A stretch of 64,000 nucleotides of DNA from Bacteroidia bacterium. GTDB taxonomy: Bacteria > Bacteroidota > Bacteroidia > Palsa-965. A model generated the notes under the pieces. That model searched no databases and was not told where the DNA came from. It worked only from the letters and a program-made list of their open reading frames with translations. Both the position numbers and the translations under genes were made by a program. Every line of letters starts with the position of its first letter. Position 1 is the stretch's first letter. Location: contig JALONL010000003.1 of assembly GCA_025454955.1 (NCBI GenBank), forward strand, positions 271,426 through 335,425, read 5' to 3'. Of the stretch, positions 43,045 through 62,427 are shown piece after piece.

Positions 43045-43789
43045 GTGGTTTTTTGAATTGTCTTCCCAAAGATAATTGAAATAGCTTGTAACAGACTTTC
43101 CTTCTGATCCAAGTTCCATTCATTGGTATTTCAGGGGCTGTCTGTCAATTTTGTGCTTAGCGTCTTGAAAACAGGGCGATAAGTGCAGAAAGCATAGAAA
43201 TAGTTTTGTGATCCGATAATCAACTGAATGGCCCGGGAAGTGCCAGTCTTTTCAAAAAAATGAAACAAACACGTAGAGAGAAGCAGAAATGTAAACGTTA
43301 ATGATTCTGTTCTGGTTTACCGGCTTCATTTGTTTATTTTCTCAAATCAGTCGCCTGAAAAATATTTTAAACAATAAAAATAATTCTATTTAATATATTT
43401 TGAAATATCAAAAAAACAATGGTCTTGTCAAGAAAACAAGGCGGAGATGTTAAGGGAAAGAAAAATGCATTTAAGCATGGTGGAAAACACTGATATTTAT
43501 ATGCAAATGATGCTTTTTCAAAGACAGATTAATGAAAAATACCGATGAATGATATGTGGATCAAGTGTTTTACCATTTATTCAATAATAATCACTTTTTC
43601 TTCAACTATCAGATATTCAGTTATTTAACGCGATTTAGCAGCTAATCCATTGCTTTGAAACTCAATATCTCCTTTCTTTGCAGCTAACAAACCGCCTTTA
43701 TAAATCCCTACATGCCTCTCCCGAACAATTACAAAGAGGATTAGTTGTTATCAAATATTTGATGACTGCTTATCTCATTTGGGTATTCA

Positions 43790-46700
43790 GTGGTGGTAAA
43801 AGAAACATCAAATTTTTACGATATGCTCCACTTTACGAAGCAAATGTTGACTGCGTCATTGCTTTTGCTGGGTAATGTTTTGTTTGCCCAGAATTTCAGC
43901 AGTGAGCCCCAGGCCAGATTTGAAGAAAACAAAGGCCAGTGGGATCAGGCAGTACTTTACCGGACAGAGTTGAATAATGGTTTTATCTACCACGAACGTG
44001 GCGGATATACCGTGCATTTCAGCAACCTGTCTGATGCTTACGAGCAATTTCACCATAGTGGTGATGATGCGGCTGATGTACAGATCAAAAACGACGTAAT
44101 GAAAGTGTCGTTTGTAGGCGCGTCATCGCTCACACAAACCCGTGCAGCTGGCCGTAACCCTGTGTCGCGCTCTTACTTTACCAACAACAAGCTGATTAAT
44201 CAGACTTCAGATGTGGGTACGTTTAACGAGCTCAGCTACGAGCAGTTGTATCCGGGCATATCGCTTACCTATCGCTCGTACCGCGATATTATTAAGTACG
44301 ATTATCTTATTGCACCCGGTGCCGATGCTTCGTTAATACGGCTTGAGTACAAAGGAGCCACTAAGCAGGAAATAGACAGCGAAGGAAACCTCATTACTTA
44401 CAACTCGCTGGGCACAATTAAGGAATATGCACCTGTGGCATATCAGGAAATGCCCACAGGCCGTGTTGATGTGGCTGTGCAGTTCGTGATTCAGAACGGG
44501 CAGGTTTCGTATTATTTCCCCAATGGGTATGATACCAATTACCCGCTGGTTATCGACCCCTTTCTTGCTGCTTCTACCTATTCGGGCTCGGTGGCCGATA
44601 ACTGGGGCTTTACTGCCTGTCCCGGACCTAATGGTGTGATGTGTATGGCCGGTGTGGCTTTCGCAGCTGGCTATCCCACCACAGTGGGAGCTTTCCAAAC
44701 CACATTTGCCGGTGCCACCGATGTAAGCATCAGTATTTTCAGTGCCAACGGTCAGAACCTTCTCGCTTCAACCTACCTCGGAGGTACTGGTAATGAATAT
44801 CCTCACTCCATCATTGCAGCAGCCAACGGCGATCTTTATGTACTTGGCCGCACCGAATCAAACAACTTCCCTACCACAGTAGGTTGTTTCGACAACTCAT
44901 TCAACGGTGGTACCACCGATATTTTCGTTGCCCGTTTAAACAGTTCACTTACCACACTTATTGCTTCTACTTATGTGGGTGGTAATGGTCTCGATGGTAC
45001 CAACGTGGTAAACAGTTTCACTGGTACCACACAAACCCGCTTCTCTTATGCCGATAACGGCCGCGGCCAGATCCGTCTCGATGGTTCGGGCAATGTGTGC
45101 GTGGCTTCCTGTACACAGTCTTCAGACTTTCCCACCACAGCAGGCGCGTTTGATATTACGCTGAGCGGCACGCAGGATGGGGTGGTGTTTAAAATGAATA
45201 ACACACTCACTACACAGGTGTACAGCACACTTGTAGGTGGAGCAGCCTTCGATGCCTGTTTCAGTTTACAGATAGGTACAGGTAATACATTATTCGTAGC
45301 CGGTCTTACAAACAGTGCCGACTTTCCGACTACGGCCGGAACCCTGCATACCACGGCCAGAGGCGGTGTGGATGGTTTCGTGTTTCAGATTAACTCCACC
45401 GGTACTGCGTTAACTGCTTCTACCTATCTCGGCACCACAAACAAAGACGGTGTATTTAACGTGGATGTAAATACTTCGGGTGTGTATGTGTATGGATTAA
45501 GTACCGGCGGTACATATCCTGTAACTCCCGGAACGTACTCCAATGCCAACAGCAGCCAGTTCATTCACGGTCTTGATCTTACGCTTACCACCACACTGTT
45601 TTCTACGGTTTTTGGAAACGGCGTTACTCCCAACCTTTCGCCCACCGCTTTTGAAGTTGATACCTGTCTTAAAATTTATGCGGCAGGCTGGGGGCGTTGT
45701 TTCGATGGTGGTACAAACATTGGCATGCCCACCACAGTAGGAGCATTTCAGACCACCACCGATAATTGCGACTTTTATTTTATAGTGCTTGAGCCTAATG
45801 CGGCATCGCTCCGCTATGGTACTTATTTTGGCCAGAATGGCGGAACTGCCGACCACGTAGATGGTGGCACCAGTTTGTTCAGTAACAACAGTACTGAATC
45901 AGGCGTGGTGTATCAGGCTGTTTGCGCCTCGTGCGGTGCAGCTACCAATGGCTTCCCGGTAACGCCAAGTGCATATTCGCCGGTTGACGGAAGCACGAAC
46001 TGTAACAATGCCGTTTTCAAATTCGATCTTGAAACATACTCGCCCGGTGCTGCGGCCATTGCATCCTCAGGCAATGGTTGTGTAGGTGCGCCCATTGCAT
46101 TTACCAACAACAGTACCAACGCCAACACTTACCTCTGGGACTTTGGCGATGCCAGCACCAGCACACTTACCAATCCTTCGCATACCTACGCTGCGGCGGG
46201 TACCTATACGGTAACGCTGGTTGCCTACAACAGCACAACCTGTATTCTTTCCGATACGGCCACCACTGTGGTAACCATTACACAGCCTTCGGTAAGCGTA
46301 TCGGTTACTTCGGGTACAAACCCTACCTGTAACGGAAGTTCGGTAACACTTACCGCTGCCGGTGCAGATACCTATACCTGGAATCCGGGGGCGCTTACCG
46401 GCACATCTGTAGTTGTATCGCCTGCCACGACCACTACCTATACGGTTATTGGCACCACCACTGCAACCGGTTGTACCGATACGGCTACCATAACAATTAC
46501 AGTAAACCCGATTCCGGCCACACCCACACCCGGCAGCAACAGCCCGGTTTGTACAGGAAATACCCTGAACCTCACCACAGCCGCAGTGGCAGGTGCCACG
46601 TATAGCTGGACCGGTCCGGGCGGCTTCACCTCGTCGCTCCAAAACCCCACGCGCCCCACAGCCACACTGGCTATGGCAGGCACATACAGTGTAACGGTTA

Positions 46701-49700
46701 CAGTGGCAGGATGTACCTCGGCTGCAGGAACTACGGCAGTAACCATAAACAGTACTCCCGCCACACCCACGGCCGGCAGTAACAGTCCGGTTTGTACAGG
46801 TAATACTATTAACCTGAGTACACCAACTGTAGCCGGAGCTACTTATTCATGGACAGGCCCCTCGGCTTTCTCGTCTTCATTACAGAACCCCACCCGTCCT
46901 TCGGCCACAGTGGCTATGGCCGGTACGTACAGTGTAACTGTTACGGTGGGCGGATGTACTTCAGCAGCAGGAACCACAGCAGTAGTGGTAAACGCTACAC
47001 CCGCTGCACCTACAGCCAGCAGCAACAGCCCGGTTTGCACAGGCAACACCATTAACCTGAGCACACCCACCGTGGCCGGTGCCACTTATGCCTGGACAGG
47101 CCCCTCGGCCTTCTCCTCTTCATTGCAGAATCCTACCCGTCCGTCGGCCACGGTGGCCATGGCAGGCACATACAGCGTTACTGTAACCTTTGGCGGATGT
47201 ACTTCGGCCGCCGGAACCACTGCGGTAACCATAAACACCACCCCCGCCACACCCACCGCCGGCAGCAACAGCCCGGTTTGTACGGGTAATACACTTAACC
47301 TTACCACTCCGCTTGTAGCCGGTGCCACATACTCCTGGACCGGCCCCAACAGCTTCATCTCCTCAGTACAAAACCCGAGCATTACCGGTGTAACTGCCGC
47401 TGCGGCGGGTACTTACAGCGTAACGGTAACAGTGGGCGGCTGTACTTCGGCAGCAGGCACTGTGGCAGTGGTGGTAAACACTACTCCCGCCACACCCACC
47501 GCCAGCAGCAACAGCCCGGTTTGTACAGGCAACACCATTAACCTGAGTACACCCACTGTAGCTGGTGCTACTTATGCCTGGACAGGCCCCGCGGCTTTCT
47601 CGTCTTCATTGCAGAATCCCACACGTCCTACAGCCACACTGGCTATGGCCGGCACATACAGCGTAACAGTTACCGTAAGCGGCTGTACCTCTGCCGCCGG
47701 AACTACAGCCGTAGTGGTAAATTCTACACCCGCCACACCCACCGCATCCAGCAACTCGCCGGTGTGTTCGGGCAATACGCTTAACCTTTCCACTCCGCTT
47801 GTGGCTGGCGCCACCTATTCCTGGACAGGTCCCAACAGTTTCACGTCATCATTACAAAACCCCACCATTACCGGTGTAACCACCGCCGCTACCGGAACTT
47901 ACAGTGTAACCATCACAGTAGGCGGTTGTACCTCGGCTGCCGGAACTACCGCAGTAACTATTAATCCCACTCCGGCCACACCCGCACCCACCAGCAACTC
48001 GCCCGTGTGCGTTGGCAACACCATTAACCTTAGCACTGCCACAGTAGCCGGTGCCTCTTATAGCTGGACAGGCCCCGCCGCATTCACCTCGGCTTTGCAA
48101 AATCCCACCCGTGCTTCGGCCACACTGGCCATGGCAGGGACTTACAGCGTAACAGTAACCGTAGGTGGTTGTACTTCGGCCGCCGGAACCACGGTGGTAA
48201 ACGTAGTATCGCTCCCGGCCACACCAACCGCATCCAGCAACTCGCCGGTATGTACAGGCAATACACTTAACCTGAGCACACCCACAGTGGCAGGCGCTAC
48301 TTACGCCTGGACGGGCCCCAACAGTTTCACTTCCTCTGTACAAAACCCAAGCATCACCGGCATAACAACCGCTGCCGCCGGTACCTACAGTGTGACAGTA
48401 ACAGTAGGCGGATGTACTTCGGCCGCCGGAACCACAGTGGTAACCGTAAACACCACACCTGCTGCGCCCACCGCATCCAGCAATTCGCCGGTATGCTCAG
48501 GTAATACGCTTAACCTAAGTACACCTGCTGTGGCCAGCGCCACCTACTCCTGGACAGGTCCCAACAGCTTCACGTCCTCATTACAAAACCCGACAATTAC
48601 CGGTGTAACCACCGCCGCTACCGGCACATACAGTGTAACGGTAACTGTAAGCGGTTGTACCTCGGCTGCCGGAACCACAGCAGTAACCATCAATCCCACC
48701 CCGGCCACACCCGCACCCACCAGCAACTCGCCCGTGTGCCTTGGCAACACCATTAACCTGAGCACAGCCACAGTAGCCGGTGCCACTTATAGCTGGACTG
48801 GCCCTGCTTCGTTTACCTCCACACTGCAAAACCCGACCCGTCCTTCGGCCACACTGGCTATGGCGGGAACTTACAGTGTAACTGTAACCGTAGGTGGTTG
48901 TACTTCGGCCGCCGGAACCACGGTGGTAAACGTAGTATCGCCCCCGGCCACACCCACTGCTTCAAGCAACTCGCCGGTATGTACAGGCAACACACTTAAC
49001 CTGAGCACACCCACAGTGGCAGGCGCTACTTACGCCTGGACAGGCCCCAACAGCTTTACCTCAGCTCTGCAAAACCCAAGCATCACCGGTATAACTGCCG
49101 CTGCTGCCGGTACTTATAGTGTAACGGTAACCGTAGGCGGATGTACTTCGGCCGCCGGAACCACTGTGGTAACCGTAAACAACACACCCGCCACGCCCAC
49201 GGCATCCAGCAACTCGCCGGTATGTTCGGGCAATACACTTAACCTTTCTACTCCCGCAGTGGTAGGTGCCACCTATTCATGGACAGGCCCCAACAGCTTT
49301 ACCTCCACACTGCAGAACCCCACTATTACCGGTGTAACCACCGCCGCTACCGGCACATACAGTGTAACGGTAACCGTAAATGGTTGTACCTCGGCTGCCG
49401 GAACTACCGCGGTAATTATCAATGCAACTCCGGCTGCGCCTACCGCATCCAGCAACACACCGGTATGTTCGGGCAACACCATTAACCTGAGCACACCTAC
49501 AGTTGCAGGCGCTACCTATAGCTGGACGGGTCCCGCTTCGTTCACATCATCACTGCAAAACCCAACCCGTCCTTCGGCTACCGTGGCTATGGCCGGTACT
49601 TACAGTGTAACAGTAACTGTGGCAGGTTGTACATCGGGCATTGGAACCACTGCGGTTGTGGTAAATCCCACACCAGCCACACCCACTGCATCCAGCAACT

Positions 49701-52700
49701 CGCCTGTATGTACGGGCAATACGCTCAACCTTACCACTCCGGCAGTAGTTGGTGCCACCTATTCATGGACAGGCCCCAACAGTTTCTCTTCTTCATTACA
49801 AAATCCAAGTGTAACCAACGTAACTACAGCCGATGCCGGAACATACAGTGTAACGGTAACCGTAAACGGCTGTACTTCGGTTGCCGGAACCACTGCGGTA
49901 ATCATCAATACCACACCGCTTGCTCCGGCTATTTCGAGCAATACACCTGTGTGTGCCACCACGCCGCTTAACCTTACTGCGGCTACTGTAGCCGGTGCAA
50001 CTTATGCCTGGTCTGGCCCCAACAGTTTCACCTCCACACTGCAAAACCCCACCATTGCCAGTGCTCCGCTTGCCGCAAACGGTACCTATTCGCTGGTAAT
50101 TACGGTGAATGGATGTCCCTCTACTCAAACCACCACCGTGGTATCTGTTGTTACCTGTCCCGATACGGATGGTGATGGTATTTTCGATCCGTATGATCCG
50201 GATGATGATAACGACGGTATCCTCGATGTGACAGAAGGAACCGGTGATGTTGACGGAGACGGAATTCCCAACTCGCTTGATCTTGATTCGGATAACGACG
50301 GTATTACCGACGTGGCCGAAAACGGCGGTGCCGATTCTGACGGAAACGGTATCATTGACAACTGCACCGACGTGGACAGTGATGGTCTCTGCGGTGTAGT
50401 CGATCCATCAACCGGCGGTACCCCGCTTGCCACATTGAACAATGACGGCGACGGTTTACCCAACTTCCTCGATCTCGATGCGGATAACGATGGTATTGTA
50501 GATATTATCGAAGTTGGCGGCACCGATGCAAACGGCGATGGCCAGGTGGACGGAATTGCCGACAGCGACAGCGATGGTTTACGCGACGCAGTGGATCCGA
50601 ACCAGAGTGGCATACCAATATTTACCACCGGAGCCGATGCCAACACCGATGGCCGTCCCGACAGCTATCCGACCGACAATGCCGACAACAACGGCCTGCC
50701 CAACTTCCTCGATATTGATGCCGATAACGACGGTATAGTGGATAATATCGAAGGCCAGTCATCGGCCGGATATACACCGCCTACCGGCACCGACAGCGAT
50801 GGCGATGGAATTGATAATGCCTACGATAACTTTGCCGGATTTGGCGGCGCGGGTGTAACACCGGTAAATACCGATGCAGCCACCGACGGTGCCGACTACA
50901 TTGATACCGATGCCGACAACGACGGCGACCTTGATGCGCTCGAAGGCTGGGATACCGATAACAACGGTGTGGCCAACACATTGCCTGCCGGTACCGATGC
51001 CGATGGCGACGGTCTCGACGATAACTACGACACCAACGACGCGCTTTGGAATCCAGGCAACGGACAAACACCCACCTCATTCCCGAACCTTGATAACACC
51101 GCCACACCCCAGCTCGACTGGCGCGAAGCGCTTGACAATGATGGCGATGGTGTAACCGACATCAACGATCCGGATGATGACAACGACGGTGTAACCGACA
51201 TTGCAGAAGGAACCGGTGATGCCGACGGCGACGGAATTCCGAACAACCTTGATCTCGACAGTGATAACGACGGAATTACCGACGTAATTGAAAACGGTCT
51301 CCTTGATGCCAACGGCGATGGCATTGTGGATGGTTTCACCGACGTGGACAACGACGGTTTGAACGATGCACAGGATCCAAGCCAGAGCGGAACACCGGTA
51401 ACACCCGGCGACAGAGACAACGACGGTGTACCCAACTTCCTTGATCTCGACAGCGATAACGACGGTATTACCGACGTAGCCGAAAACGGCGGTGCTGATG
51501 CCGACGGCGACGGACGCATTGACGGATTTACAGACACCAACGGCAATGGCCTTGCCGATAACGTGGATCCCACCGCAGGCGGCACACCGCTGCCCACACT
51601 GAACAGCGATGGTGACTCAGCCCCCAATTACCTTGACCTCGACAGCGATAATGATGGCATAGTGGACATCATTGAAGTAGGCGGCACCGATGCCAATGGC
51701 GATGGCCAGGTGGACGGTACTGCCGATGCTGACGGCGATGGTTTGCGCGATACGGTTGACCCCACACAAAGCGGCACACCAATATTTACCACCGGTGCCG
51801 ATACCAACAACGACGGCCGCCCGAACAGCTACCCGAACGATAACGCAGACAGCAACGGCCTGCCCAACTTCCTCGATATTGATGCCGACAACGATGGTAT
51901 TGCAGATAACATCGAAGGCCAGTCAACAGCAGGCTACACACCGCCCACCGGCAACGATACCGATGGCGATGGCATTGACGATGCCTATGATACCACTGCA
52001 GGCTTTGGCGGCGCAGGTGTAACACCGGTAAATACCGACTCTGCCTCTGACGGTGCCGACTACATTGATACCGATGCCGACAACGACGCCATAAGCGATG
52101 CCATTGAAGGCTGGGACACCAACGGCGACAACGTAGCCGACACCACCCCTTCGGGCAACGATGCCGACGGCGATGGTCTTGACGACAACTACGACAACAA
52201 CGACGCACTCTGGAACCCGACCAACGGCCAGACACCCACATCGTTCCCGAACCTCGACAATCCTTCAACCACGCAGCTCGACTGGCGTGAAATTGAAGAC
52301 TTCGACAACGACGGCGTGGCCAACGCATTCGATCCGGATGATGACAACGACGGCATTCTCGACGTAACCGAAGGAACTGCTGACACCGACGGCGATGGCA
52401 ACCCTGATGCCACCGACCTCGACTCTGACAACGACGGTATTACCGATGTGGCTGAAAACGGCGGTGCTGATGCTGACGGCGACGGATTCATCGACAACTT
52501 TACCGATGCTGACAACGACGGTCTGGCCGATGCAGTTGACCCCTCGCAGGGCGGCACTCCGCTGGCTACACTCGATAACGATGGCGACGGTCGCCCGAAT
52601 TACATTGACCTCGACAGCGACAACGACGGCATTGTAGATATTATCGAAGCCGGCGGAACAGATGCCGACGGTAACGGTATAGTGGATAATGCCACCGACG

Positions 52701-55700
52701 CAGACAACGACGGTCTGTACGACGTGGTTGATCCCACACAAAGCGGCACACCGATATTTACCACCGGAGCCGACACCAACAACGACGGCCGCCCGGACAG
52801 CTATCCGAACGACAATACCGACAACAACGGCCTGCCCAACTTCCTCGATATCGACAGCGATAACGATGGTATTGTGGACAACATCGAAGGCCAGTCGACA
52901 CCGGGCTATACACCGCCCACTGGTCTCGACAGCGACAACGACGGTATTGACAATGCTTACGACAACTTCGCCGGCTTTGGCGGTGGTGGTGTAACGCCTG
53001 TAAACACAGACGGTACGCCCGACGGTCCCGATTACACGGACACCGACACCGACAACGACGGCATGAACGATGCCCTCGAAGGCTGGGACACCAACAACGA
53101 CGGAAACGCCGACACCACACCTTCGGGCAACGATGCCGACGGCGATGGTCTCGACGACAACTATGACAGCAACGATGCCCTCTGGAATCCGACCAACGGC
53201 CAGACACCCACATCGTTCCCGAACCTCGACAATGCTTCCACCCCACAGCTCGACTGGCGCGAAACCGACGACTCGGATAACGACGGCGTACTGAACAACG
53301 TGGATCCTGACGACGACAACGACGGCATCCTTGACATTGTGGAAGGCACCGCCGATACCGACGGCGACGGAATTCCGAACTACCTCGATCTCGACAGCGA
53401 CAACGATGGTATTCCTGATGTAACCGAAGCTGGTGGCTCTGATCCTGACGGCGACGGCATTATCGGCAACGGTCCGTTTACCGATACCGATAACGATGGT
53501 CTTGGCGATCTTGTGGATCCCAGCACCGGCGGCACTCCGCTGCCTTACCCCGACAGCGACGGCGACGGCATTCCGAACACACAAGACCTCGACAGCGATA
53601 ACGACGGCATTACTGATGTAACCGAAGCAGGCGGCACCGATGCCAACGGCGACGGCATCATTGACGGCTTTACTGATACCGACAACGATGGTCTGGCCGA
53701 TGTGGTGGATCCGAACAACGGCGGAACCCCGCTGCCCACGCCCGACAGCGACGGAGACGGCAACGACGATTACGTAGATCTCGACAGCGACAACGACGGC
53801 ATAACCGATGTAACCGAAGCAGGCGGCACCGATGCCAACGGCGACGGTATCATTGACGGCTTTGCCGACACCGACAACGATGGTCTGAGCGACAACGTGG
53901 ACACCAACAACGGTGGCACTGCATTGCCCACACCCGACAGCGATGGCGACGGCAACGACGATTACGTGGATCTCGACAGCGACAACGACGGCATTCCTGA
54001 TGTGGTAGAAGCAGGCGGCACCGATGCCAACGGCGATGGCGTAATTGACGGCTTTGCCGATACCGACAACGATGGTTTGAGCGATAACGTGGACACCAAC
54101 AACGGTGGCACCGCACTGCCAAACCCCGACAGCGATGGCGATGGACTTAACGATGTAATCGACCTCGACAGCGACAACGACGGTATTACCGATGTAACCG
54201 AAGCTGGCGGCACCGATGCCAACGGTGACGGCATCATTGATGGCTTTGCCGATACCGACAACGACGGTCTGAGCGATAACGTGGACACCAACAACGGTGG
54301 CACCGCATTGCCCACACCCGACAGCGATGGCGACGGCAACGACGATTACGTGGATCTCGACAGCGATAACGACGGTATTGCCGATGTAGTGGAAGCAGGC
54401 GGCACCGACGCCAACGGCGATGGTATAATTGACGGCTTTGCCGATACCGACAACGATGGTTTGAGCGATAACGTGGACACCAACAATGGCGGCACCGCAT
54501 TGCTCAACCCCGATACCGACGGCGACGGATTGAACAACGTAGTTGATCTCGACAGCGACAACGACGGCATTACCGATGTAGCCGAAGCAGGTGGCACCGA
54601 CGCCAACGGCGACGGCATCATTGACGGCTTTGCCGATACCGACAACGATGGTCTGAGCGATAACGTAGACACCAACAACGGCGGAACAGCACTGCCTGTG
54701 CCTGACACCGACGGCGATGGTGTGGACAATTACCTCGACCTCGACAGCGACAACGATGGCATTACCGATGTAATTGAGAACGGCGGTGCCGACAGCAACG
54801 GCGATGGTATCATTGACGGATTTGCCGACACCAACAACAACGGTCTTGCCGATGATGCCGATCCGGCAAACGGAGGAACTCCGTTTGGCGAAGCCGATCA
54901 GGATGGTGATAACATTCCGAATTACCTTGATCTCGACAGCGATAATGATGGAATAGTGGACATTGTGGAAACCGGCGGAACCGACGCCAACGGCGACGGT
55001 CAGGTGGATGCATTTGCCGATACCAACGGAAACGGTTTGGCCGACAGCGTGGATCCTGCCACCTCCGGCACACCCAATACCACTACCGGCAACGATACCA
55101 ACAGCGATGGCCGTCCGGACAGCTACCCGAACGACAATGCAGATAACAGTGGTCGTCCCGACTTCCTGGATATTGATGCCGATAACGATGGTATTGTAGA
55201 TAACATCGAAGCGCAGTCAACCACCGGTTATGTGGCGCCCACGGGCAACGATACCGACGGCGACGGCATTGATGATGCGTATGACACTACACCGGGCTTT
55301 GGTGGCGCAGGCGTAACACCTGTGAACACCGACGGTGCCGATACACCCGACTACATTGATACCGACACCGACAACGACGGCTTCTCGGATCTGGTAGAAG
55401 GCAACGACTTCAACAACAACAACCAGCCCGATGTACTGCCCAGCGGTAACGATACGGATGGCGACGGACTGGATGATTCCTACGACAACGTAAACACCAC
55501 CGGCACCGCCAACGTAACCAACAACGATGCTCCCGCCACCGGAACCACATTCCCCGACGTGGATGTAGTGGGCGGTGAACTCGACTGGCGCGATCCGGTG
55601 GATACCGATGGTGATGGTATTTCCAACAACATTGACATTGACGATGACAACGATGGAATTACCGACGTAACCGAAGCAGCCACCGCCTCAAACAACGGCG

Positions 55701-57973
55701 ATACCGACGGAGACGGAATTCCCGATCAGCTTGATCTCGACAGCGACAACGACGGCATTGCCGACGTAATTGAAGCCAATGGTTCTGACCCCGACAACGA
55801 CGGCGTAACCGGCACCGGTCCCATTACCGACCTCAACGGCGACGGTCTGGCTGACAACCTCGGCCCGAACGGTTTGCCCGGCGTGGATACCGATGGCGAT
55901 GGTCGTCCTGACTTCCAGGATCTCGACAGCGACAACGACGGCATCAACGACCTCACCGAAAGCGGCGGCAACCAGACCGATGCCAACAGCGACGGCCAAG
56001 TAGATGGCCCCGACACCGACGGCGATGGTTTGCCCGACAGCTCTGACAGCAGCAACGGCGGCTCGCTTACCGGCAACCCAACCGACTTTGACGGCGACGG
56101 CGTGGACGACTACCGCGACCTTGATTCGGACAACGACGGTATTAACGACGTGGTAGAATCGGGCAACGGTGCGCTGGATGCCAACAACGACGGTATTGTG
56201 GACGGCGGCGATGCCGACAACGACGGTATCCGCGATGCGGCCGATGCCAACGACACCACTTTCGGCGATCCGGATACGACTGATGCTCCGGGCGATTTCG
56301 ATGGCGATGGTAACCCTGATTACAACGACCTCGACAGCGACAACGACGGCATCAACGACATCACCGAAGCCAACCTCGACAACCTCGATACCAACAGCGA
56401 CGGTGTAGTGGATGGCCCCGATACCGACGGCGACGGCATTAACGATCCGGCCGACGGAGCCAACGGAACCTTTGGCGATGCCAACAGCCCGGCACTGCCC
56501 GATACCGACGGCGACGGCACACCCGATTACACCGATCTCGACAGCGATAACGACGGCATCAACGACATTACCGAAGCCGGTCTCGACAACCTCGATGCCA
56601 ACAGCGACGGCGTAGTGGATGGCCCTGATACCGACGGCGATGGAATAAACGACCCGGCCGATGCCAACGATGGCCTGTATGGCGATCCTGACACGACCGA
56701 TATTCCGACCGACTTTGACGGCGACGGAGTTCCGGATTACCGCGATCTCGACAGCGACAACGACGGTACAAACGATGTAGTGGAATCGGGCAATGCCAGT
56801 GCCGACCTGAACGGCGACGGATTAGTGGACGGCACCGATACTGACGGCGATGGTATTGTAGATGTGGTAGATGCCAGCAACGGCACCTACGGCGATGCGG
56901 ATGTAAACGACACACCCGTGGACACCGACGGCGACGGCCAGCCCGACTACAACGACCTCGACAGCGACAACGACGGCATCAATGATGTGATTGAAGCCGG
57001 CAACGGTGCTCTCGATACCAACAACGACGGCATAGTGGATGGCCCCGATACCGACGGCGACGGCATAAACGACCCGGCCGACGGCAACACCGGAGTATTT
57101 GGCGACACGCCGGGCAATCCGCTGCCTGACACCGACGGCGACGGAGTTCCCGACTACCTCGATCTTGATTCCGACAATGACGGCATCAACGATGTGGATG
57201 AAGGCGGCAACGGCGACCTCGATGCCAACAACGATGGCATAATTGACGGTGTGGACACCGACGGTGACGGCATCCTTGATCCGGTTGACGGAAGCACCGG
57301 TTACGGCGACAACCCCGGCAACCCGCTGCCGCCAGATACAGATGGTGACGGAATTCCCGACTATCAGGATCTCGACAGCGATAACGACGGAATCTTCGAT
57401 GTGGATGAAAACGGCAACGGAGATCTTGATACCGATAACGACGGAACCATTGACGGCAACGATACCGATGGAGATGGTATTCTCGATCCGGTTGACGGAG
57501 CAAACGGAACCTGGGGCGATGCCGGAAACAATCCAGTGGACACCGACGGCGACGGAACACCGAACTATCAGGATCTCGACAGCGACGGTGATGGAATTCC
57601 CGACGGCACCAGCGACGAAGTAATTGCCGAAGACTGCGACGGCGATGGAATCTCGAACTACCTCGATCCCGATCCGTGCGATCTGTTAGTTCCGGAAGGC
57701 TTCTCACCGAACGGTGACGGTACCAACGATTTCTTCGAAATCAAAGGCATCACGGCATTCCCGAACAACAACATTCAGATCTTCAACCGCTGGGGTAATC
57801 TGGTGTACGAAGGCAATGGCTACGACAATGCCGCAGTACGCTGGGATGGCACCAACAAGGCCGACGGTATAAGCACCGGCAGCGGTCTGGTTCCGGAAGC
57901 CACTTACTTCTACGTGATTGATCTGGGCGACGGAAGCCCGGTAATGAAAGGTTACATCTACGTGAAATACTGA
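43790..57973 (+). CDS. Giant (about 4.7 k aa) cell-surface adhesin-like protein with a T9SS type-B C-terminal domain (gliding-motility-associated CTD)
   Basis: Signal peptide (the start may be the M at 43823, [23 protein letters not shown]). N-terminal beta-propeller/SBBP-like repeats. A PKD-like domain ([10 protein letters not shown]). 15 tandem Ig-like repeats of 80 aa. About 2,500 aa of thrombospondin type-3-like D-rich calcium-binding repeats (DxDxDGxxDxxD). C-terminal ...[25 protein letters not shown]...[12 protein letters not shown]...[22 protein letters not shown] matches the type-B CTD. Confidence 0.9.
   Translation: [4727 protein letters not shown]
46500..50100 (+). repeat. 15 in-frame tandem 240-bp (80-aa) Ig-like repeats inside the giant gene, with a roughly 0.72 kb three-repeat super-unit duplicated
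   Basis: A recurring ...[16 protein letters not shown](L/I)[18 protein letters not shown].S.LQNP....AT.[21 protein letters not shown]... unit, with high nucleotide identity between copies. Repeats 7-8-9 (about 47970-48700) are nearly identical to repeats 10-11-12 (about 48700-49430). Confidence 0.85.
50150..57650 (+). repeat. Coding calcium-binding aspartate-rich (thrombospondin type-3-like) repeat region with nested periodicities
   Basis: Four ~1.1 kb super-repeats, each starting ...[17 protein letters not shown].DGDG and ending ...[17 protein letters not shown], at about 50160, 51130, 52300 and 53270. About six near-identical 186-bp units ([64 protein letters not shown]) at about 53560-54700. 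About eight ~190-bp units (TDGDG.[43 protein letters not shown]) at about 55700-57600. Confidence 0.85.
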
Positions 57974-57989
57974 TAGGAGGGAAGAAGCT

Positions 57990-58955
57990 ATGAACAGATC
58001 TCAAAAAATGATCGTCATGAAAACGAAAGTATGGTTAACCACAGCAGTGCTTGCACTGCTGTGGGCTGCCGATGTACATGCACAGCAGGATCCGCAGTTT
58101 ACCCATTACATGTACAACACACTCAGTGTAAATCCCGCCTACGCAGGCAGCCGCGGATCGCTGAATGTGAGTGCGCTTCACCGCCAGCAGTGGATAGGTT
58201 TTGAAGGTGCGCCAATGACACAAACCGTTTACGCTCACATGCCGCTGCCCAACGAAAAAATGGGCGTGGGGCTTTCGGTGGTAAACGATAAAATCGGGCC
58301 GCTCAATCAAACTTTTATCTACGGCGATTATTCATACACTGTACGTTTGACGAGTGCCGTGAAACTGGCATTCGGTATCAAGGCAGGTTTGAATATGTTT
58401 CAGCCCAAGATTGCCGGGTTGAGCACCATTGATGCGTCTGATCCTTCGTTTGTAAACAGCACGCTTGAGCGTTCCATCAAACCCAACCTCGGAGCCGGTT
58501 TATACCTGCACCACGAGCGTTGGTACATTGGTGCCAGTTCGCCACGCTTGCTGGAAAACAAGTTTAACCTTAACGGTGTTTCTGCCAACGATACGAATAC
58601 GGTGAAAGAAATCCGCCACCTGTTTCTAATTGGCGGATTGGTATTTCCGATTAACAGCGAACTCAAACTGAAACCCACCGTTCAAACCAAGCTGGTTAAA
58701 AACGCGCCGCTTTCGCTCGATGCCACGGTAGAGGCGTTAATCCGCGACCAGTTTAACCTTGGTGTGGGTATGCGTTTGGGCGATAGTTTCTACGGACTGG
58801 TAGGCTATCAGTTCAACGATCAGTTCAAGGCCGGTATGTCTTACGATTATACGATAGGCCCGTTGCGCAACGTGAATGGAAATACAGTAGAGATTTTCCT
58901 CAGTTACGATTTCTTTTTCCGCAACGATAAAATCCGCTCACCGCGTTATTTCTGA
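57990..58955 (+). CDS. T9SS membrane protein, PorP/SprF family
   Basis: The hallmark N-terminus ...AQQDPQFTHYMYNTLSVNPAYAGS and its position immediately downstream of a type-B CTD protein. Its stop overlaps the start of the next gene. Confidence 0.85.
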   Translation: MNRSQKMIVMKTKVWLTTAVLALLWAADVHAQQDPQFTHYMYNTLSVNPAYAGSRGSLNVSALHRQQWIGFEGAPMTQTVYAHMPLPNEKMGVGLSVVNDKIGPLNQTFIYGDYSYTVRLTSAVKLAFGIKAGLNMFQPKIAGLSTIDASDPSFVNSTLERSIKPNLGAGLYLHHERWYIGASSPRLLENKFNLNGVSANDTNTVKEIRHLFLIGGLVFPINSELKLKPTVQTKLVKNAPLSLDATVEALIRDQFNLGVGMRLGDSFYGLVGYQFNDQFKAGMSYDYTIGPLRNVNGNTVEIFLSYDFFFRNDKIRSPRYF

Positions 58956-61207
58956 TGAAATTTCAAACGACCAAACGCTCTGTTATGAAATACTTAGTGA
59001 TGCTCCTGCTGTGTGTAACAGCATTTGCCGCACAGGCTCAAACGCCCACGCAACGCCGTGCCGATCGTTACTACGACCGTCTGGCGTATGCACGAGCCAT
59101 TCCGCTGTATGAAAAACTGGCGGCTTCAAACGCTGCCGACGACCGCACGCTTATGCGTCTGGGCGATTGCTACCGCAACCTGGGCCGCTGGGGCAAGGCC
59201 GAAGAAACCTACGGCAAAGTGGCCAAAGGCGCCAGTCCTACAGCCGAGAGTTTCTACAACTACGCCCAGGCTTTGCGTGCCAATGGCAAGTACGATGAAA
59301 GCCTGCTGTGGATGGATAAATTTCACGGCATACAGCTTGCCGACCGGCGCGGAACGGAACACGTAACCCGCCGCGATTTCATCCAGAAAATAAACGGCCA
59401 GCCTGCTTATTTCGATTTGCAGTCGCTCGACATCAACACCGCCCAGGCCGATTTCGGCACCGGGTTTTACAAAGACAAAGTGGTGTTTACCTCTTCGCGT
59501 CGCAAGCGTGCGGGCGTGGTAACCATTCACGCATGGAACAACAATCCGTTTCTCGATCTCTTTGTGGCCGGCCGCGATTCATCTACCGGTAAGTTGAGCA
59601 ATGCCACTTTGCTTAGTCGCAAAACCAACACCCGCTATCACGAAGGCCCTGCCTGTTTTACCTCAAACGGCATGACCATGTACTTTACGCGAAACAATTA
59701 TTTCAATAAAGAGTATCGCAAAGACAGCAAGGGTGTAAACAACCTGAAAATTTTCCGCGCTGTGTGGAACGGTACTGCCTGGGTGGAAGAAAATCTGCCC
59801 ATAAACAGCGATGAATTTTCGGTAGGTCACCCCGCACTCAGCCCCGACGGAAACTGGCTTTATTTTGTGAGCGATATGCCCGGCGGCATTGGCGGAACGG
59901 ATGTATATCGTGTGGCGATTTCGGAAGCCGGAAAATTAGGTGTGCCCCAGAATCTGGGCAACGTAATCAATACCGAAGGCAACGAAATGTTTCCATTTGT
60001 GGATAAAGACGGTAATCTTTTCTTTGCATCCAACGGGCACGTAGGTTTGGGCGGATTAGATGTAAACTATGCAGCTCCCAAAGGCGATGGTTTTGCCAAG
60101 CCCGAAAACCTGGGCGCACCCGTGAACACACCCGACGATGATTTTGCGCTCGTGCTGGATGCTTCGGGCAAAGGCTATTTGTCGAGCAACCGTGCCGGCG
60201 GGAAAGGCGATGATGATATTTACGCCGTTCGTCTGGTTCGTCCGCTCAAACAAACCTACCTCGTAAAAGGTGTGGCCAAAGACAAGCGTGCCGATGTACT
60301 GCTTGCCGGTGCCGAAATTTCGCTGCGCGATGCTGCCGGAAATGTGATTCAAACCGTGACAACCGGTGTGGATGGAAATTATCAGTTTGAAGTTGATCCT
60401 GCCAAAGAGTATTCCATTACCGGCACAAAGGAAAAGTATTTCGATGGCGTGAATAAATTCAACACCAACGAACTTGGCGAGAAAACAGAACTTGTAAAGG
60501 ATGTGGAGCTTGAAAAAGACCCCGGCCTTTCGCTGTATGCGCTGGTTACCGACAAAACAAACGGCAAGCCGCTGGATGGCGTGAAAATGGTAATTACCGA
60601 CAACATCACCGGCCAGCCGGTTACCGATATGCTTACACCCGTGTCGGGCGATTTCCGCAAGCCGTTGCCCGAGAAAAAAATCGGCGACCGCATCAGCTAC
60701 AACATCAAGCTTGACAAGGAAGGTTACTTAGGCAAGGTGGTTACGTTTAATGCGTCGATTGAAAAAGCCGGCGAAATTAAAGTACACGAGGCAATGGATC
60801 TTTCGCTCGACAAGATTCAGGTGGGAGCCGACCTTGCCAAGATTATCGACATCAAGCCCATTTATTTCGATCTGGGCAAGTCAAACATCCGTCCCGATGC
60901 GGCTGCCGAGCTCGACAAGATTGTGAAGGTAATGAAGGAAAATCCCACAATGGTAATCGAACTCGGTTCGCATACCGACTGCCGTTCGAGCGCCGCTTCC
61001 AACATGGCACTGAGCGATCGTCGCGCCAAATCGTCGGCAGCGTACATTATTTCCAAAGGCATTGATGCCAGTCGCATTTACGGCAAAGGCTACGGCGAAA
61101 CCAAACTAATAAACGGCTGCGCCTGCGAAGGTGCCGTAAAGTCAACCTGCTCGGAGCAGGAGCACCAGCAGAACCGCCGTACTGAGTTTATTATTGTGAA
61201 GATGTAA
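58955..61207 (+). CDS. OmpA-family protein (TPR and TolB-like beta-propeller with a C-terminal OmpA peptidoglycan-binding domain)
   Basis: C-terminal OmpA-like block IKPIYFDLGKSNIRPDAAAELDKIVKVM...ELGSHTDCRSSAASNMALSDRRAKS. TPR-like N-terminus. A WD40/TolB-like segment (LSPDGNWLYFVSD...GGTDVYRV). The likely start is MKYLVMLLL at about 58985. Confidence 0.85.
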   Translation: MKFQTTKRSVMKYLVMLLLCVTAFAAQAQTPTQRRADRYYDRLAYARAIPLYEKLAASNAADDRTLMRLGDCYRNLGRWGKAEETYGKVAKGASPTAESFYNYAQALRANGKYDESLLWMDKFHGIQLADRRGTEHVTRRDFIQKINGQPAYFDLQSLDINTAQADFGTGFYKDKVVFTSSRRKRAGVVTIHAWNNNPFLDLFVAGRDSSTGKLSNATLLSRKTNTRYHEGPACFTSNGMTMYFTRNNYFNKEYRKDSKGVNNLKIFRAVWNGTAWVEENLPINSDEFSVGHPALSPDGNWLYFVSDMPGGIGGTDVYRVAISEAGKLGVPQNLGNVINTEGNEMFPFVDKDGNLFFASNGHVGLGGLDVNYAAPKGDGFAKPENLGAPVNTPDDDFALVLDASGKGYLSSNRAGGKGDDDIYAVRLVRPLKQTYLVKGVAKDKRADVLLAGAEISLRDAAGNVIQTVTTGVDGNYQFEVDPAKEYSITGTKEKYFDGVNKFNTNELGEKTELVKDVELEKDPGLSLYALVTDKTNGKPLDGVKMVITDNITGQPVTDMLTPVSGDFRKPLPEKKIGDRISYNIKLDKEGYLGKVVTFNASIEKAGEIKVHEAMDLSLDKIQVGADLAKIIDIKPIYFDLGKSNIRPDAAAELDKIVKVMKENPTMVIELGSHTDCRSSAASNMALSDRRAKSSAAYIISKGIDASRIYGKGYGETKLINGCACEGAVKSTCSEQEHQQNRRTEFIIVKM

Positions 61208-61229
61208 ATCAATTTTTTAGCTGAATCTG

Positions 61230-61268
61230 AAGCCGCCTGTGTAAGAATTTATGCAGGCGGCTTTTTTG
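61230..61268 (+). terminator. Rho-independent terminator
   Basis: aagccgcctg-(14-nt loop)-caggcggctt followed by TTTTTT, 23 bp after the stop. Confidence 0.75.
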
Positions 61269-61340
61269 TGATTTTGATGCTGCAGGCGTGATGATTCTCC
61301 AGCCCCCGACAAAAAATGTCAGGGCAGGCTGAGATTGCAG

Positions 61341-61440
61341 CGGAAACACCGCAACAGCAAAAACAGTTGTGTGCCCAACTCTCCGAGGTTTTCGGAAACC
61401 TCGGAGAGTTGAGTGGTTTTTTGTTTTTGCTGTTGCGGTG
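61341..61440. repeat. A ~100-bp nested imperfect palindrome that is not part of any gene
   Basis: Outer arms caccgcaacagcaaaaaca and tgtttttgctgttgcggtg (19 bp, perfectly complementary). Inner stem caactctccgaggtt-ttcgga-aacctcggagagttg (15 bp, 5-nt loop). The inner stem is flanked by non-complementary bulges. Confidence 0.6.
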
Positions 61441-61500
61441 TTGGAGCGTAAAGCCCAAGCCAAGCGGTTCTAAATTGCTTCCCCGGTTCGCTCCAAAAAA

Positions 61501-61839
61501 TTAAAAATACCCCTGCACCGAATCCCACTCCACAATTACAAACACCAGCGCCACACACACCGCCAGCGCCGAAACGCAGCAACCCACAATGGCCAGCGTG
61601 CGGGCCGTGCGTATGCGCTGCACCGAAACACGGCTCCAGCGCGAAGGCCGTTTCTCGTACTCGCCAAGCCTGCGGCCCGTGAGTAAAAGCACAGCCACCC
61701 CAATGCCCACACCTATAATTCCCGCAAAAACAATGGAAGCCACGCCCAGCACAATAAGTAAACGGCTGCCCGACAAATCGGGCGGCGGCGGCGGTGGAGA
61801 GGCTTGCTGCTTGCTGTCGGGGTAATATGGATACGGCAT
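61501..61839 (-). CDS. Small proline-rich membrane protein (DUF4190-like)
   Basis: MPYPYYPDSKQQASPPPPPPDLSG followed by two hydrophobic helices. Same architecture as the 16087-16431 product. Confidence 0.45.
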   Translation of the reverse strand: MPYPYYPDSKQQASPPPPPPDLSGSRLLIVLGVASIVFAGIIGVGIGVAVLLLTGRRLGEYEKRPSRWSRVSVQRIRTARTLAIVGCCVSALAVCVALVFVIVEWDSVQGYF

Positions 61840-61994
61840 ATCCCTGCAAAGTTAGCCGAACAGATTATTTGACCAACAGCACGAACCGCGCTGCCAGTTA
61901 TGCCCGGCTAAAAATTTTAGCCACCCCTGTAACAAGCAGTCGTGCAGCCCCGTCATATTCACAAACAACGACAAAACGTACAAAAACATATACC

Positions 61995-62342: not shown

Positions 62343-62427
62343 TAAATTTACAGCCGGGTTGTAACAATAAGTCCGGTATATCGTCCCACAAATACAAAGT
62401 ATAAGCATATTTATCCCCCCGAATAAA

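Follow-up and report, generated by a model that had tools for sequence, protein, structure and literature searches.

A likely three-gene operon in a 64-kb window of Bacteroidia DNA (the whole stretch analysed, 64,000 nucleotides) probably builds a very long, adhesin-like fibre that would be fixed on the surface of the cell, with a tether to the cell wall, a reading to which we give a probability of about 0.6. The three abutting open reading frames encode a giant type-B T9SS cargo, a carrier of the PorP/SprF family and a PorE-like protein (gene 3), and all three, on the + strand, lie exactly where the first-pass annotation of the sequence put them. The operon and its borders are as follows.

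43120..43789, + strand: upstream intergenic region, ~670 bp, AT-rich (GC 0.425 over 42001-44000)
43790..57973, + strand: cargo gene, giant type-B T9SS; ORF of 4,727 aa from GTG 43790, without internal stop
57990..58955, + strand: PorP/SprF-family carrier gene, 321 aa
58955..61207, + strand: PorE-like gene (gene 3), 750 aa, or 740 aa from ATG 58985
61229..61264, + strand: predicted intrinsic terminator closing the operon; 16-bp stem, 7 GC pairs, 4-nt loop, tail TTTGTGATTT

The cargo and carrier genes are separated by 16 nt, the carrier's stop codon shares one base with the first ATG of gene 3, and a single strong terminator follows gene 3, so that co-transcription as one operon, already proposed on first pass, is likely. 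The terminator hairpin, which has a T-run, lies 22 nt past the end of gene 3 and is among the two best hairpins in a scan of 43000-62500. The promoter and 5′ leader of the cargo gene presumably lie in the upstream region; no promoter was identified across 43120-43789, where the sole exact Bacteroidota -7 motif (TAnnTTTG) occurs at 43201; scanning for sigma-70 promoters is uninformative in this phylum. GTG 43790 is merely the first possible start of the cargo gene, and ATG 43823 is likely the true one, since it gives a normal signal peptide followed by NF. Gene 3 may likewise begin at its second Met (58985), the start as called in a 92%-identical relative (L001).

The cargo itself can be divided, from N- to C-terminus, into a secretion signal, a head, a rod, a stalk and a sorting domain.

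43823..43891, + strand: Sec-type signal peptide MLHFTKQMLTASLLLLGNVLFAQ, ORF aa 12-34; predicted, read from the translation
43919..46276, + strand: distal head; DUF7948 beta-sandwich (aa 44-257), SBBP-type beta-propeller (aa ~258-750), PKD (aa 757-829)
46292..50149, + strand: Ig-like rod, aa ~835-2120; one divergent and 15 regular 81-aa repeats (Ig_7, 'CHU_C-associated'), two Cys each
50150..57679, + strand: Asp-rich stalk, aa ~2121-4630; thrombospondin-type-3-like DxDxDGxxDxxD/E motifs
53413..55886, + strand: ~2.47-kb stalk block without counterpart in L001, aa ~3208-4032, including the 64-aa tandem array
57689..57970, + strand: type-B T9SS C-terminal sorting domain (CTD), aa 4634-4727

The type-B CTD claimed on first pass is borne out by matches to TIGR04131 (48.6 bits, cutoff 35; model positions 3-83 of 85) and PF13585 (95.7 bits; positions 3-86 of 86), both within aa 4634-4725, and the C-terminal peptide quoted for it (...FSPNGDGTNDFFEI...YFYVIDLGDGSPVMKGYIYVKY) is present in the cargo translation. 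At the other end, homologue alignments start just past the signal peptide, and the head matches PF25778 (181.7 bits), PKD (89.5 bits) and SBBP (23.2 bits). Its AF2 model has a mean pLDDT of 84.8, with the propeller above 90, and the PDB folds that it matches best are those of the CylK propeller (E 3e-17) and of an archaeal S-layer YVTN propeller plus PKD, 1L0Q. The head has more than 7,000 homologues, mostly of ~1,150-1,400 aa and of the architecture DUF7948-SBBP-PKD-CHU_C, in Chitinophagales, Sphingobacteriales and related groups (Taibaiella chishuiensis P0218 is a named example). These proteins are 40-59% identical to the head (aa 1-830) and also end in a type-B CTD, but they differ in three respects: the cargo has an insertion of ~3,800 aa, rod and stalk, separating head from CTD; their CTDs match that of the cargo only partly (37-46% identity); and both of the examples that were inspected are orphans, lacking a PorP or PorE gene alongside. 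The cargo is a mosaic, in which a common propeller head is joined to a stalk and a sorting domain whose ancestry differs from that of the head.

The rod is highly regular. Fifteen SPVC anchors recur at an exact spacing of 81 aa, TRF reports periods of 243 nt (13.6 copies) and 486 nt (7.0 copies) with 71-74% matches, and PF19081 matches at 114.9 bits; identity to the rods of the cargos of relatives L003 and L004 is 64-69%. The Pfam search of the cargo gave no match to the SprB repeat (PF13573).

The stalk is composed of ~25% Asp (residues 2120-4630; 638 Asp) and contains 96 motifs of the form D.D.D[GN]..[DN]..[DE], against 1.1 +/- 1.0 expected from 500 composition-preserving shuffles, together with 30 copies of DLDSDNDGI. 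Three sub-blocks can be told apart: aa 2120-3250 consist of ~388/324-aa super-repeats, aa ~3255-3780 of 64-aa repeats and aa ~3975-4630 of ~69-aa repeats. TRF reports arrays of 192 nt (7.8 copies, 82% matches) and 207-210 nt. Pfam TSP_3 and TSP3_bac and a PDB sequence search gave no match to the stalk, its scores against NCBIfam throspo3_MtsC (56.4 bits, E 2e-15; cutoff 350) and CglD (13.7 bits; cutoff 400) are far under the cutoffs, and AF2 modelling of the repeats gave no usable structure (pLDDT 45). Myxococcus MtsC and CglD, surface proteins with thrombospondin-type-3-like repeats, share the DxDxDG-type Asp motif with the stalk and nothing beyond it, as phylum, sorting signals and secretion route all differ. 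Judging by the motif, the stalk is probably loaded with Ca2+. The Asp-rich half had been called unusual for a SprB-like protein, which holds against SprB itself but not against related type-B cargos: 19 of 77 cargos adjoining related PorP-like genes have at least five such motifs, as do 43 among the 150 nearest CTD relatives (28 of 63 among those of at least 1,000 aa). With such motifs in 25-29% of related cargos, only the extent of the stalk (~2,500 aa) is exceptional, and with 96 motifs in 4,727 aa the cargo tops every sampled relative.

Could so large and repetitive a gene be an artefact, either an array of mis-assembled repeats or a gene in decay that is not expressed? The short-read assemblies of close relatives do break within the cargo gene, one relative (L084) carries a frameshift at ~aa 280, and L001 lacks the 2.47-kb block, blastn aligning 49241-53413 with L001 260-4432 and 55886-61235 with L001 4373-9735 at 83-86% identity. 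That block may represent either real repeat-number variation or collapse in L001's short-read assembly. In the window, though, the frame is open for 14,184 nt, its domains follow one another coherently from the signal peptide through to the CTD, and the other genes of the operon are intact. The repeat units have diverged to 71-82% nucleotide matches, which makes gross collapse in the assembly, and expansion as well, unlikely. An artefact is very improbable, and copy numbers are to be taken as assembled rather than as exact.

The gene downstream of the cargo had been assigned to the PorP/SprF family, and TIGR03519 (255.4 bits, cutoff 90.55) and PF11751 (278 bits) confirm this. The carrier has a predicted signal peptide (...ADVHA, then QQDPQF) and terminates at ...SPRYF, the barrel terminus. 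It contains no Cys in its 321 aa, and so lacks the C-tail Cys-x-Cys of SprF, which forms a disulfide to GldK on the gliding track, is required for sustained helical movement though not for export, and is invariant among close SprF homologues (PMC12635249). Its relatives agree: the last 45 residues hold no CxC in any of the 120 closest homologues, 119 of which end in xPRxF, and no Cys in any of 80 related loci.

These features bear directly on the analogy with sprB-sprF of Flavobacterium johnsoniae drawn in the first-pass annotation, which predicted a mobile or anchored adhesin; on the mobile reading, the carrier would move the fibre along the GldJ/K/N track and drive gliding. There is a real resemblance, since SprB is also a giant, repetitive type-B CTD cargo with a PorP/SprF-family carrier encoded immediately downstream, and the filament-like architecture seen here would suit such a role. 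JGI also labels many head homologues 'gliding motility-associated-like protein', a label that reflects the CTD only. In addition, some type-B cargos, according to the F. johnsoniae study, contact the gliding machinery weakly and independently of disulfides, which counts against a fixed fibre. Nevertheless, the carrier is without the Cys-x-Cys tail that sustained track movement requires (PMC12635249), the cargo is without PF13573 repeats, and the PorE-like gene attached here has no counterpart at sprB-sprF or beside any other mobile cargo of F. johnsoniae (PMC9143113, PMC12618676). A giant surface adhesin is thus a reasonable part of the analogy, while SprB is the wrong sub-type, and a mobile gliding adhesin appears quite unlikely. 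A static, anchored adhesin is favoured because the carrier lacks Cys-x-Cys and the cargo lacks SprB repeats.

Gene 3 had been described as an OmpA-family TPR/beta-propeller protein, and Pfam does find TPR (aa ~35-118), a PD40 beta-propeller and OmpA_C (aa 637-725), as well as a CarboxypepD_reg beta-sandwich (aa 437-500) and an extra segment of ~100 aa. Most PorE-like neighbours measure 642-676 aa, which makes this protein ~90-100 aa longer. Its best PDB match is 6TOP, the OmpA_C domain of PorE with a peptidoglycan fragment (E 1e-18), and D675/N683/R690 are spaced identically to D576/N584/R591 of PorE (PMC7192894). This peptidoglycan-binding triad is intact in gene 3 and in 67/67 PorE-like neighbours. 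By its domain composition gene 3 is more than a generic OmpA protein; it is a PorE paralogue with the four-domain PorE architecture, and would be a periplasmic, peptidoglycan-binding tether. Counting against this reading, it falls short of the curated cutoffs of two models, PorE (NF052230, 355 against 600 bits) and CHU_0125 (NF053607, 492.7 against 620). Its predicted signal peptide is of SPI type (AQA, then Q), the h-region Cys being Phe in L001, and it does not look like that of a lipoprotein, unlike P. gingivalis PorE; the PorE homologues of F. johnsoniae similarly have signal peptides, with none predicted to be a lipoprotein (PMC7192894).

A tether in the operon makes little sense for a product that is released, which weighs against the idea that the cargo is a shed, polyanionic Ca2+-binding protein (of a biofilm matrix, an S-layer-like coat or a cation reservoir) and that the PorP-like protein only extracts it from the translocon. 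What recommends that idea is the extreme charge (~ -699 net; Asp 14.6% of all residues, 638 of them in the stalk), the likeness of the head to S-layer propeller plus PKD modules, and the precedent of RemA-type T9SS cargos, which may first be anchored and later released (PMC12618676). As the type-B cargos studied to date stay carrier-bound (PMC9143113, PMC12635249), and as a head, rod, stalk and anchor in series make up the plan of a tethered fibre, shedding is unlikely.

The three-gene arrangement recurs in relatives. For related PorP-like genes, 80 species-representative loci were compared: a type-B CTD ORF abuts upstream in 77 of the 78 that could be evaluated, a PorE-like gene abuts downstream in 64 of 77, and both neighbours are present in 62 of the 80. 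The module is also found in L001 and L002 (carrier 92% identical) and in L003 (65%). Across relatives, the identity of the CTD and that of the carrier go together (89/92% in L001, 69/65% in L003 and 67/64% in L004), which points to a cognate cargo-carrier pairing. That the carrier and gene 3 are instead the general PorP and PorE of the T9SS, beside the cargo by chance, has a precedent in P. gingivalis, where a single PorP and PorE serve the whole system and bind the sole type-B protein (PMC9143113). It is, however, hardly probable given the recurrent triplet and its co-divergence, the score of gene 3 below the PorE cutoff (355 against 600 bits), the absence of adjoining gldK/L/M/N, unlike the porP-porKLMN arrangement, and the many such paralogues in genomes such as that of F. 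johnsoniae (PMC7192894, PMC12618676). No core T9SS or gliding genes occur within the 64-kb window; four further cargo genes with type-A CTDs do, and these are counted in favour of a T9SS in the organism. The organism belongs to an uncultured Bacteroidia lineage, its best GcvP match (92%) being to a MAG.

By published description, the closest counterpart is Fjoh_3952-Fjoh_3951-Fjoh_3950 of F. johnsoniae, with a type-B cargo, cognate PorP/SprF-like carrier and PorE-like gene in the same order; it is described as one of five operons of type-B substrate, SprF-like shuttle and PorE homologue in that species and forms static foci (PMC12618676; Kulkarni et al. 2019 cited there). The cargo here is far larger and its passenger differs, with the DUF7948-propeller-PKD head, 16 Ig-like domains and ~2,500 aa of DxDxDG motifs. 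PG1035-PorP-PorE of P. gingivalis comprises the same three protein families, including the four domains and triad spacing of PorE (PMC9143113, PMC7192894), and a PorE-PorP-PG1035 complex forms; a static versus mobile hypothesis has been put forward (PMC9143113). It is unlike the present module in that it is not described as a single cargo-carrier-tether operon, porP (PGN_1677) and porE (PGN_1296) having distant tags (PMC11611037), that PorE there is a lipoprotein essential for the entire T9SS, and that PG1035 is small (~50 kDa). Operons of the present kind have been proposed to be cell-wall anchored, with the Fjoh_3952 cargo observed to be static (PMC9143113, PMC12618676); by analogy, static anchoring through a PorE-like protein would draw on that one experimental F. 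johnsoniae case and a hypothesis.

For the fixed fibre, we infer the following route. The cargo would leave to the periplasm via Sec by means of its N-terminal signal peptide, and its type-B CTD would be recognised at the T9SS translocon. The cognate PorP/SprF-like beta-barrel would then collect the cargo, the bound CTD anchoring it in the outer membrane. In the periplasm, the PorE-like protein may bind the barrel through its TPR/propeller part and peptidoglycan through OmpA_C, a link that would pin the complex in place so that it does not ride on the gliding track. Going by domain order, the fibre would comprise a membrane-proximal, probably Ca2+-loaded Asp-rich stalk of ~2,500 residues, then a rod of 16 Ig-like domains with disulfides, and at its tip a beta-sandwich, a seven-bladed-type propeller and PKD head that is presumably ligand-binding. 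The secretion module is of a known kind, though unusually large and rich in Ca motifs, and its product is more likely to be fixed in place than to take part in SprB-like gliding.

The operon consists of three consecutive ORFs on the forward strand:

43790-57973, + strand, giant cargo gene (4,727 aa)
57990-58955, + strand, PorP-like carrier gene (321 aa)
58955-61207, + strand, PorE-like gene (750 aa)

All three had been proposed in the first-pass annotation, and the peptides quoted there agree with the translations. The GTG at 43790 is merely the first possible start codon of the cargo ORF, and the ATG at 43823 yields a conventional signal peptide (MLHFTKQMLTASLLLLGNVLFAQ, followed by NF). A gap of 16 nt separates the cargo stop from the carrier ATG, and the carrier stop codon overlaps the first ATG of the third gene, whose second Met, 30 nt later, is the start used by gene callers in a 92%-identical relative. 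A 16-bp hairpin with a T-run lies at 61229-61264, 3′ of the third gene, and no comparable hairpin occurs between the three genes. The simplest reading is one transcription unit running from ~43.8 kb to 61.2 kb, and the short gap, the gene overlap and the position of the hairpin uphold the earlier suggestion of co-transcription. The cargo is preceded by an AT-rich spacer of 670 bp, where an exact search for TAnnTTTG found one site only, ~600 nt upstream, and no promoter could be assigned; σ70 promoter scans are uninformative for Bacteroidota. Long reverse-strand ORFs within the giant gene (window 44000-58000), such as 52265-53584 (439 aa), are a by-product of its GAC/GGC-rich repeats and not genes.

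The host is an uncultured Bacteroidia lineage; a search with its GcvP gave matches to Bacteroidia/Bacteroidota MAGs only, the best of them at 92%. The operon is flanked by housekeeping genes, and neither Rfam nor a tRNA scan revealed any RNA gene in the window. Several other loci in the window were noted in passing:

6395-8181, - strand, AAA ATPase with AriA/HEC-01A/GajA-like matches of up to 92 bits, in a second low-GC patch (0.387); adjoined by a 200-aa partner with weak HEC-01B matches (22 bits), the two may form a defence pair, its type being uncertain
35860-37803, - strand, AbiL-type defence pair, with Pfam AAA_21 in AbiLi (277 bits, E 4e-83) and Pfam RloB in AbiLii (100 bits), in a low-GC patch (0.41 vs ~0.51) amid housekeeping genes; at this position L084, a syntenic relative, carries an AAA_15/AAA_21 gene of 392 aa beside a gene of 177 aa
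41436-42461 and 42418-43119, - strand, gene pair divergent from the cargo with no Pfam, NCBIfam or PADLOC match, encoding one polytopic membrane protein and one small protein that carries a signal peptide and, towards its C-terminus, hydrophobic segments; kept at the same position in L084
62428-63891, + strand, 487-aa protein with a DUF2807 'GIN' putative adhesin head fused to an OMP_b-brl_2 barrel; kept downstream of the operon in the loci of close relatives (L001/L002), not in the more distant L003

Profile searches place the first two genes of the operon within type IX secretion (T9SS). The type-B sorting domain (CTD) previously read by eye at the extreme C-terminus of the cargo was recovered by TIGR04131 at 48.6 bits (cutoff 35) and by PF13585 (CHU_C) at 95.7 bits (cutoff 27), both over aa 4634-4725 of the 4,727-aa protein and across nearly the entire model. 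The gene directly 3′ of it, likewise assigned to the PorP/SprF family beforehand, scored 255.4 bits against TIGR03519 (cutoff 90.55; profile positions 5-292 of 292) and 278.3 bits against PF11751. No T9SS core genes (SprA, GldK/L/M/N) or gliding genes lie within the 64-kb window. Four further ORFs carry type-A CTDs (TIGR04183, 41-46 bits, cutoff 23), bringing the T9SS cargo genes in the window to five, and these four argue for a working T9SS:

9893-11209, - strand, type-A CTD ORF
11451-12698, + strand, type-A CTD ORF
17686-20340, + strand, type-A CTD ORF (884 aa)
20447-23065, + strand, type-A CTD ORF (872 aa)

The two large ones are tandem neighbours, and their N-terminal parts weakly resemble PorZ.

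The locus had been likened to sprB-sprF, which encodes the Flavobacterium johnsoniae gliding adhesin and its carrier. Work on SprF has shown that a Cys-x-Cys in its C-terminal tail, disulfide-bonded to GldK, couples the carrier to the moving track, and that this motif is invariant in close homologues and required for sustained movement, not for export (PMC12635249). The carrier encoded here has no cysteines at all, and thus no SprF-type Cys-x-Cys, and it ends at ...SPRYF without a C-terminal tail. Among its 120 closest database homologues, none has Cys-x-Cys in the last 45 aa and 119 end in xPRxF; a comparison of the carrier with PDB sequences gave no match at E ≤ 1. SprB repeats (PF13573) are absent from the Pfam matches of the full cargo protein at E ≤ 0.01 and present in some homologues of its head.

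Gene order tells a similar story. A complex of PorE with PorP and PG1035, a type-B protein, has been described in Porphyromonas gingivalis; six porP-like genes of F. johnsoniae adjoin porE-like genes whereas sprB-sprF does not, and it was proposed that PorE-linked cargos are wall-fixed and SprB-type cargos mobile (PMC9143113). Other work described five F. johnsoniae operons in which a type-B substrate is encoded with an SprF-like shuttle and a homologue of PorE; Fjoh_3952 formed static foci only, as did SprB bearing the Fjoh_3952 CTD, and the mobile substrates have no PorE-like gene encoded alongside (PMC12618676). On these accounts an SprF-type carrier would be expected to have no porE-like neighbour (PMC9143113, PMC12618676), whereas here a PorE-like gene overlaps the carrier stop.

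Of the features that define the SprF/SprB sub-type, two were looked for and are missing from this locus, and all testable features of PorE-linked operons are present. With a carrier devoid of cysteine and tail, an attached PorE-like gene and a cargo lacking PF13573, the SprB-SprF analogy had to be given up; the best comparators are Fjoh_3952-3951-3950 and PG1035-PorP-PorE. For these same reasons the cargo is probably static and not mobile in the manner of SprB, a reading extended from one experimental system and to which we assign a probability of roughly 0.6.

The third gene, previously annotated as an OmpA-family TPR/propeller protein, does possess those domains but is no generic OmpA protein. 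Its Pfam domains (TPR, 35-118; PD40 propeller; CarboxypepD_reg sandwich, 437-500; OmpA_C, 637-725) reproduce the four-domain architecture of PorE. The T9SS_PorE model NF052230 scored 355.1 bits, below its cutoff of 600, with profile positions 3-502 aligning to residues 14-516 and the OmpA portion aligning separately, and NF053607 (CHU_0125_OmpA) aligned end to end at 492.7 bits, below its cutoff of 620. Because end-to-end alignments to both models score below the cutoffs, the gene is a PorE paralogue and an orthologue of neither PorE nor CHU_0125. CHU_0125 itself, judged from its flanking genes, apparently has no adjoining giant cargo gene (PMC5891637).

The top PDB match of this protein (E 1e-18) was 6TOP, a crystal structure of PorE OmpA_C together with a fragment of peptidoglycan, in which D576, N584 and R591 contact the peptidoglycan (DAP) (PMC7192894). 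The corresponding residues here are D675/N683/R690, with identical +8/+15 spacing, and the Asp/Asn/Arg triad is kept in 67/67 collected PorE-like neighbours. By inspection, the signal peptide is of the SPI type (...FAAQA followed by QTP). A lipoprotein was considered and rejected, because the only Cys in the vicinity falls within the h-region, ahead of the SPI site, and is replaced by Phe in the 92%-identical relative; inspection likewise found no conserved N-terminal Cys among the PorE-like proteins of related loci. The protein apparently differs in this respect from P. gingivalis PorE, which is a lipoprotein, and agrees with the PorE homologues of F. johnsoniae, none of which is predicted to be one (PMC7192894). 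The C722-A-C724 sequence in its OmpA_C domain was also considered, as a track-coupling motif, and dismissed for its position inside the folded domain. OmpA-like domains commonly bear disulfides. Members of this PorE-like clade are long (715-775 aa vs 642-676 aa for most others surveyed), and the extra ~100 residues (aa ~506-620) sit between CarboxypepD_reg and OmpA_C. This segment has a weak second beta-sandwich match (PF22902, 21 bits, below cutoff) and may confer a longer periplasmic reach.

The same arrangement recurs widely among relatives of the carrier, which number 4,855 at E ≤ 1e-20. In a phmmer-based survey of 80 species-representative loci, covering the carrier's own subfamily and not all PorP/SprF proteins, an abutting upstream ORF ending in a type-B CTD was found at 77 of 78 evaluable loci, an abutting downstream PorE-like gene at 64 of 77, and both neighbours at 62. 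The xPRxF ending was present in 77/80 of these carriers, and cysteine in the last 45 residues in none of the 80. A close relative (92% carrier identity; the L001/L002 contig) has the same cargo, PorP-like, PorE-like and downstream genes. In L003 (65% carrier identity, on a 4.96-Mb contig) a 2,968-aa CHU_C cargo with Ig_7 and weak TSP3_bac matches precedes the same two genes, and the carrier of the closest species-representative genome is 64% identical. Across relatives CTD and carrier identities co-vary (89/92, 69/65 and 67/64%), which is what cognate pairs should show. An adjacent PorE-like gene together with an xPRxF carrier end free of C-tail cysteines may offer a candidate rule for telling probable static from probable mobile type-B adhesins; it held in ~200 relatives, all of them relatives of this carrier, with the mobile class lying outside that sample.

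The cargo itself is divided into five regions:

aa 12-34 (ORF numbering), Sec-type signal peptide, MLHFTKQMLTASLLLLGNVLFAQ followed by NF, by inspection of the translation
aa ~40-830, head: DUF7948 sandwich, beta-propeller and PKD
aa ~835-2120, Ig-like rod: one divergent and fifteen regular 81-aa repeats
aa ~2120-4630, Asp-rich stalk with DxDxDG-type motifs
aa 4634-4727, type-B CTD

Further Pfam matches were to DUF7948 (aa 44-257), PKD (aa 757-829) and the Ig_7 'CHU_C-associated' Ig repeats. An AF2 model of the head built from 35 homologues had a mean pLDDT of 84.8, exceeding 90 in the propeller. Foldseek related it to generic propellers only, including CylK (E 3e-17) and an archaeal S-layer YVTN propeller with PKD (E 4e-15), and therefore no ligand can be inferred. 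The rod has two Cys per repeat at exact spacing, with a DNA period of 243/486 nt (71-74% matches), and the whole cargo carries a net charge of about -699. Since the CTD is the carrier-binding part of the cargo in the systems studied (PMC9143113), the stalk should lie closest to the membrane, with the propeller head at the far end.

Sequence comparison indicates that this cargo is a mosaic, its head, rod, stalk and CTD having different nearest relatives. The head shares 40-59% identity with a family of >7,000 matches, ~1,150-1,400 aa in length and of DUF7948-SBBP-PKD-CHU_C architecture; both members inspected (n=2) lack a PorP or PorE neighbour. Identity to the cargos of the more distant L003 and L004 is 64-69% in the Ig rod, 52% in the stalk and 67-69% in the CTD, and the heads of those two cargos are unrelated to this one and have no Pfam match. 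The head may have been grafted from a family without a dedicated carrier, to go by the two members inspected, onto a carrier-linked stalk and CTD; such a graft would amount to an adhesin head retargeted by CTD swap. The stalk also holds an extra 2.47 kb (53413-55886) relative to the 83-86%-identical L001, which is either real repeat-number variation or a collapse in the L001 assembly. In L084 (87-91% identical) the cargo head has a frameshift at ~aa 280 (L084 ~7980-8001) and is called as 271-aa and 1,216-aa genes, reflecting either an error of sequencing or assembly or genuine decay of the gene in that strain.

The stalk is ~25% Asp (638 Asp) and contains 96 D.D.D[GN]..[DN]..[DE] motifs, against 1.1 ± 1.0 in 500 shuffles. 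Tandem DxDxDGxxDxxD/E motifs are spaced predominantly by 13 and 28-29 residues and form super-repeats of ~388/324 aa, one array of 64-aa units and another of ~69-aa units. Pfam searches with the whole cargo and with four stalk segments gave no TSP_3 (PF02412) or TSP3_bac (PF18884) match even at E ≤ 1, which may be due to HMMER composition-bias filters; the sole family-level match was to throspo3_MtsC (NCBIfam; 56.4 bits, below cutoff). A phmmer search of a stalk segment against PDB returned no thrombospondin, only a spurious de-novo protein (E 0.87), and an AF2 model of three stalk units, built on ten aligned copies of the internal repeats, was unusable (mean pLDDT 45). The label thrombospondin-type-3-like is therefore drawn from the motif counts together with the weak match to MtsC, and applies at the motif level only. 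We found no paper tying thrombospondin-like repeats to T9SS.

How uncommon such a stalk is depends on the comparison. The Asp-rich half had been singled out as unusual for SprB-like proteins, and against SprB it is. Against related type-B cargos it is not, given that at least five motifs occur in 19/77 cargos of the neighbourhood survey and in 43 of the best 150 of 47,212 CTD relatives (28/63 of those of at least 1,000 aa). These relatives were collected at E ≤ 0.001 with the last 110 cargo residues against 1.84 billion cluster representatives. Twelve of the best 150 have at least 20 motifs, the maximum being 52 motifs and the longest protein 4,089 aa. The present cargo, with 96 motifs and 4,727 aa, lies beyond all of these best 150, a comparison that serves as a lower bound as many database entries are fragmentary.

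One could conceive of the stalk as a Ca2+-operated element of export and folding and, thereafter, a spacer, with the head retargeted by CTD swap. While in the periplasm, where Ca2+ is low, the stalk would remain unfolded or compact; it would fold only after leaving the cell, and this extracellular folding would help to ratchet the 4,727-residue substrate through the T9SS. After export it would be a Ca2+-tunable rigid spacer keeping the propeller head far from the base pinned at the cell wall. We regard this combined reading as unlikely. The proposed role resembles that of RTX repeats in type-1-secreted giant adhesins, and to our knowledge no RTX-like Ca2+ folding role has been described for T9SS.

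The operon type, in which a type-B cargo is followed by a PorP/SprF-like carrier and a PorE-like tether, is already known from F. johnsoniae and P. gingivalis, where it was described between 2019 and 2025, and the locus represents no new system. The operon is a well-formed example of that type, made noteworthy by the size of its cargo, by the acidic stalk rich in motifs and by the mosaic construction of the protein. As both the length and the DxDxDG count exceed those of every sampled relative, it provides a test case for how the T9SS deals with very long, highly acidic substrates. The differing nearest relatives of head, rod, stalk and CTD, along with a 2.5-kb repeat block that varies between close relatives, speak to modular evolution of these fibres. 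The new possibility that remains is a role for the stalk in T9SS export, through Ca2+-dependent folding or ratcheting.
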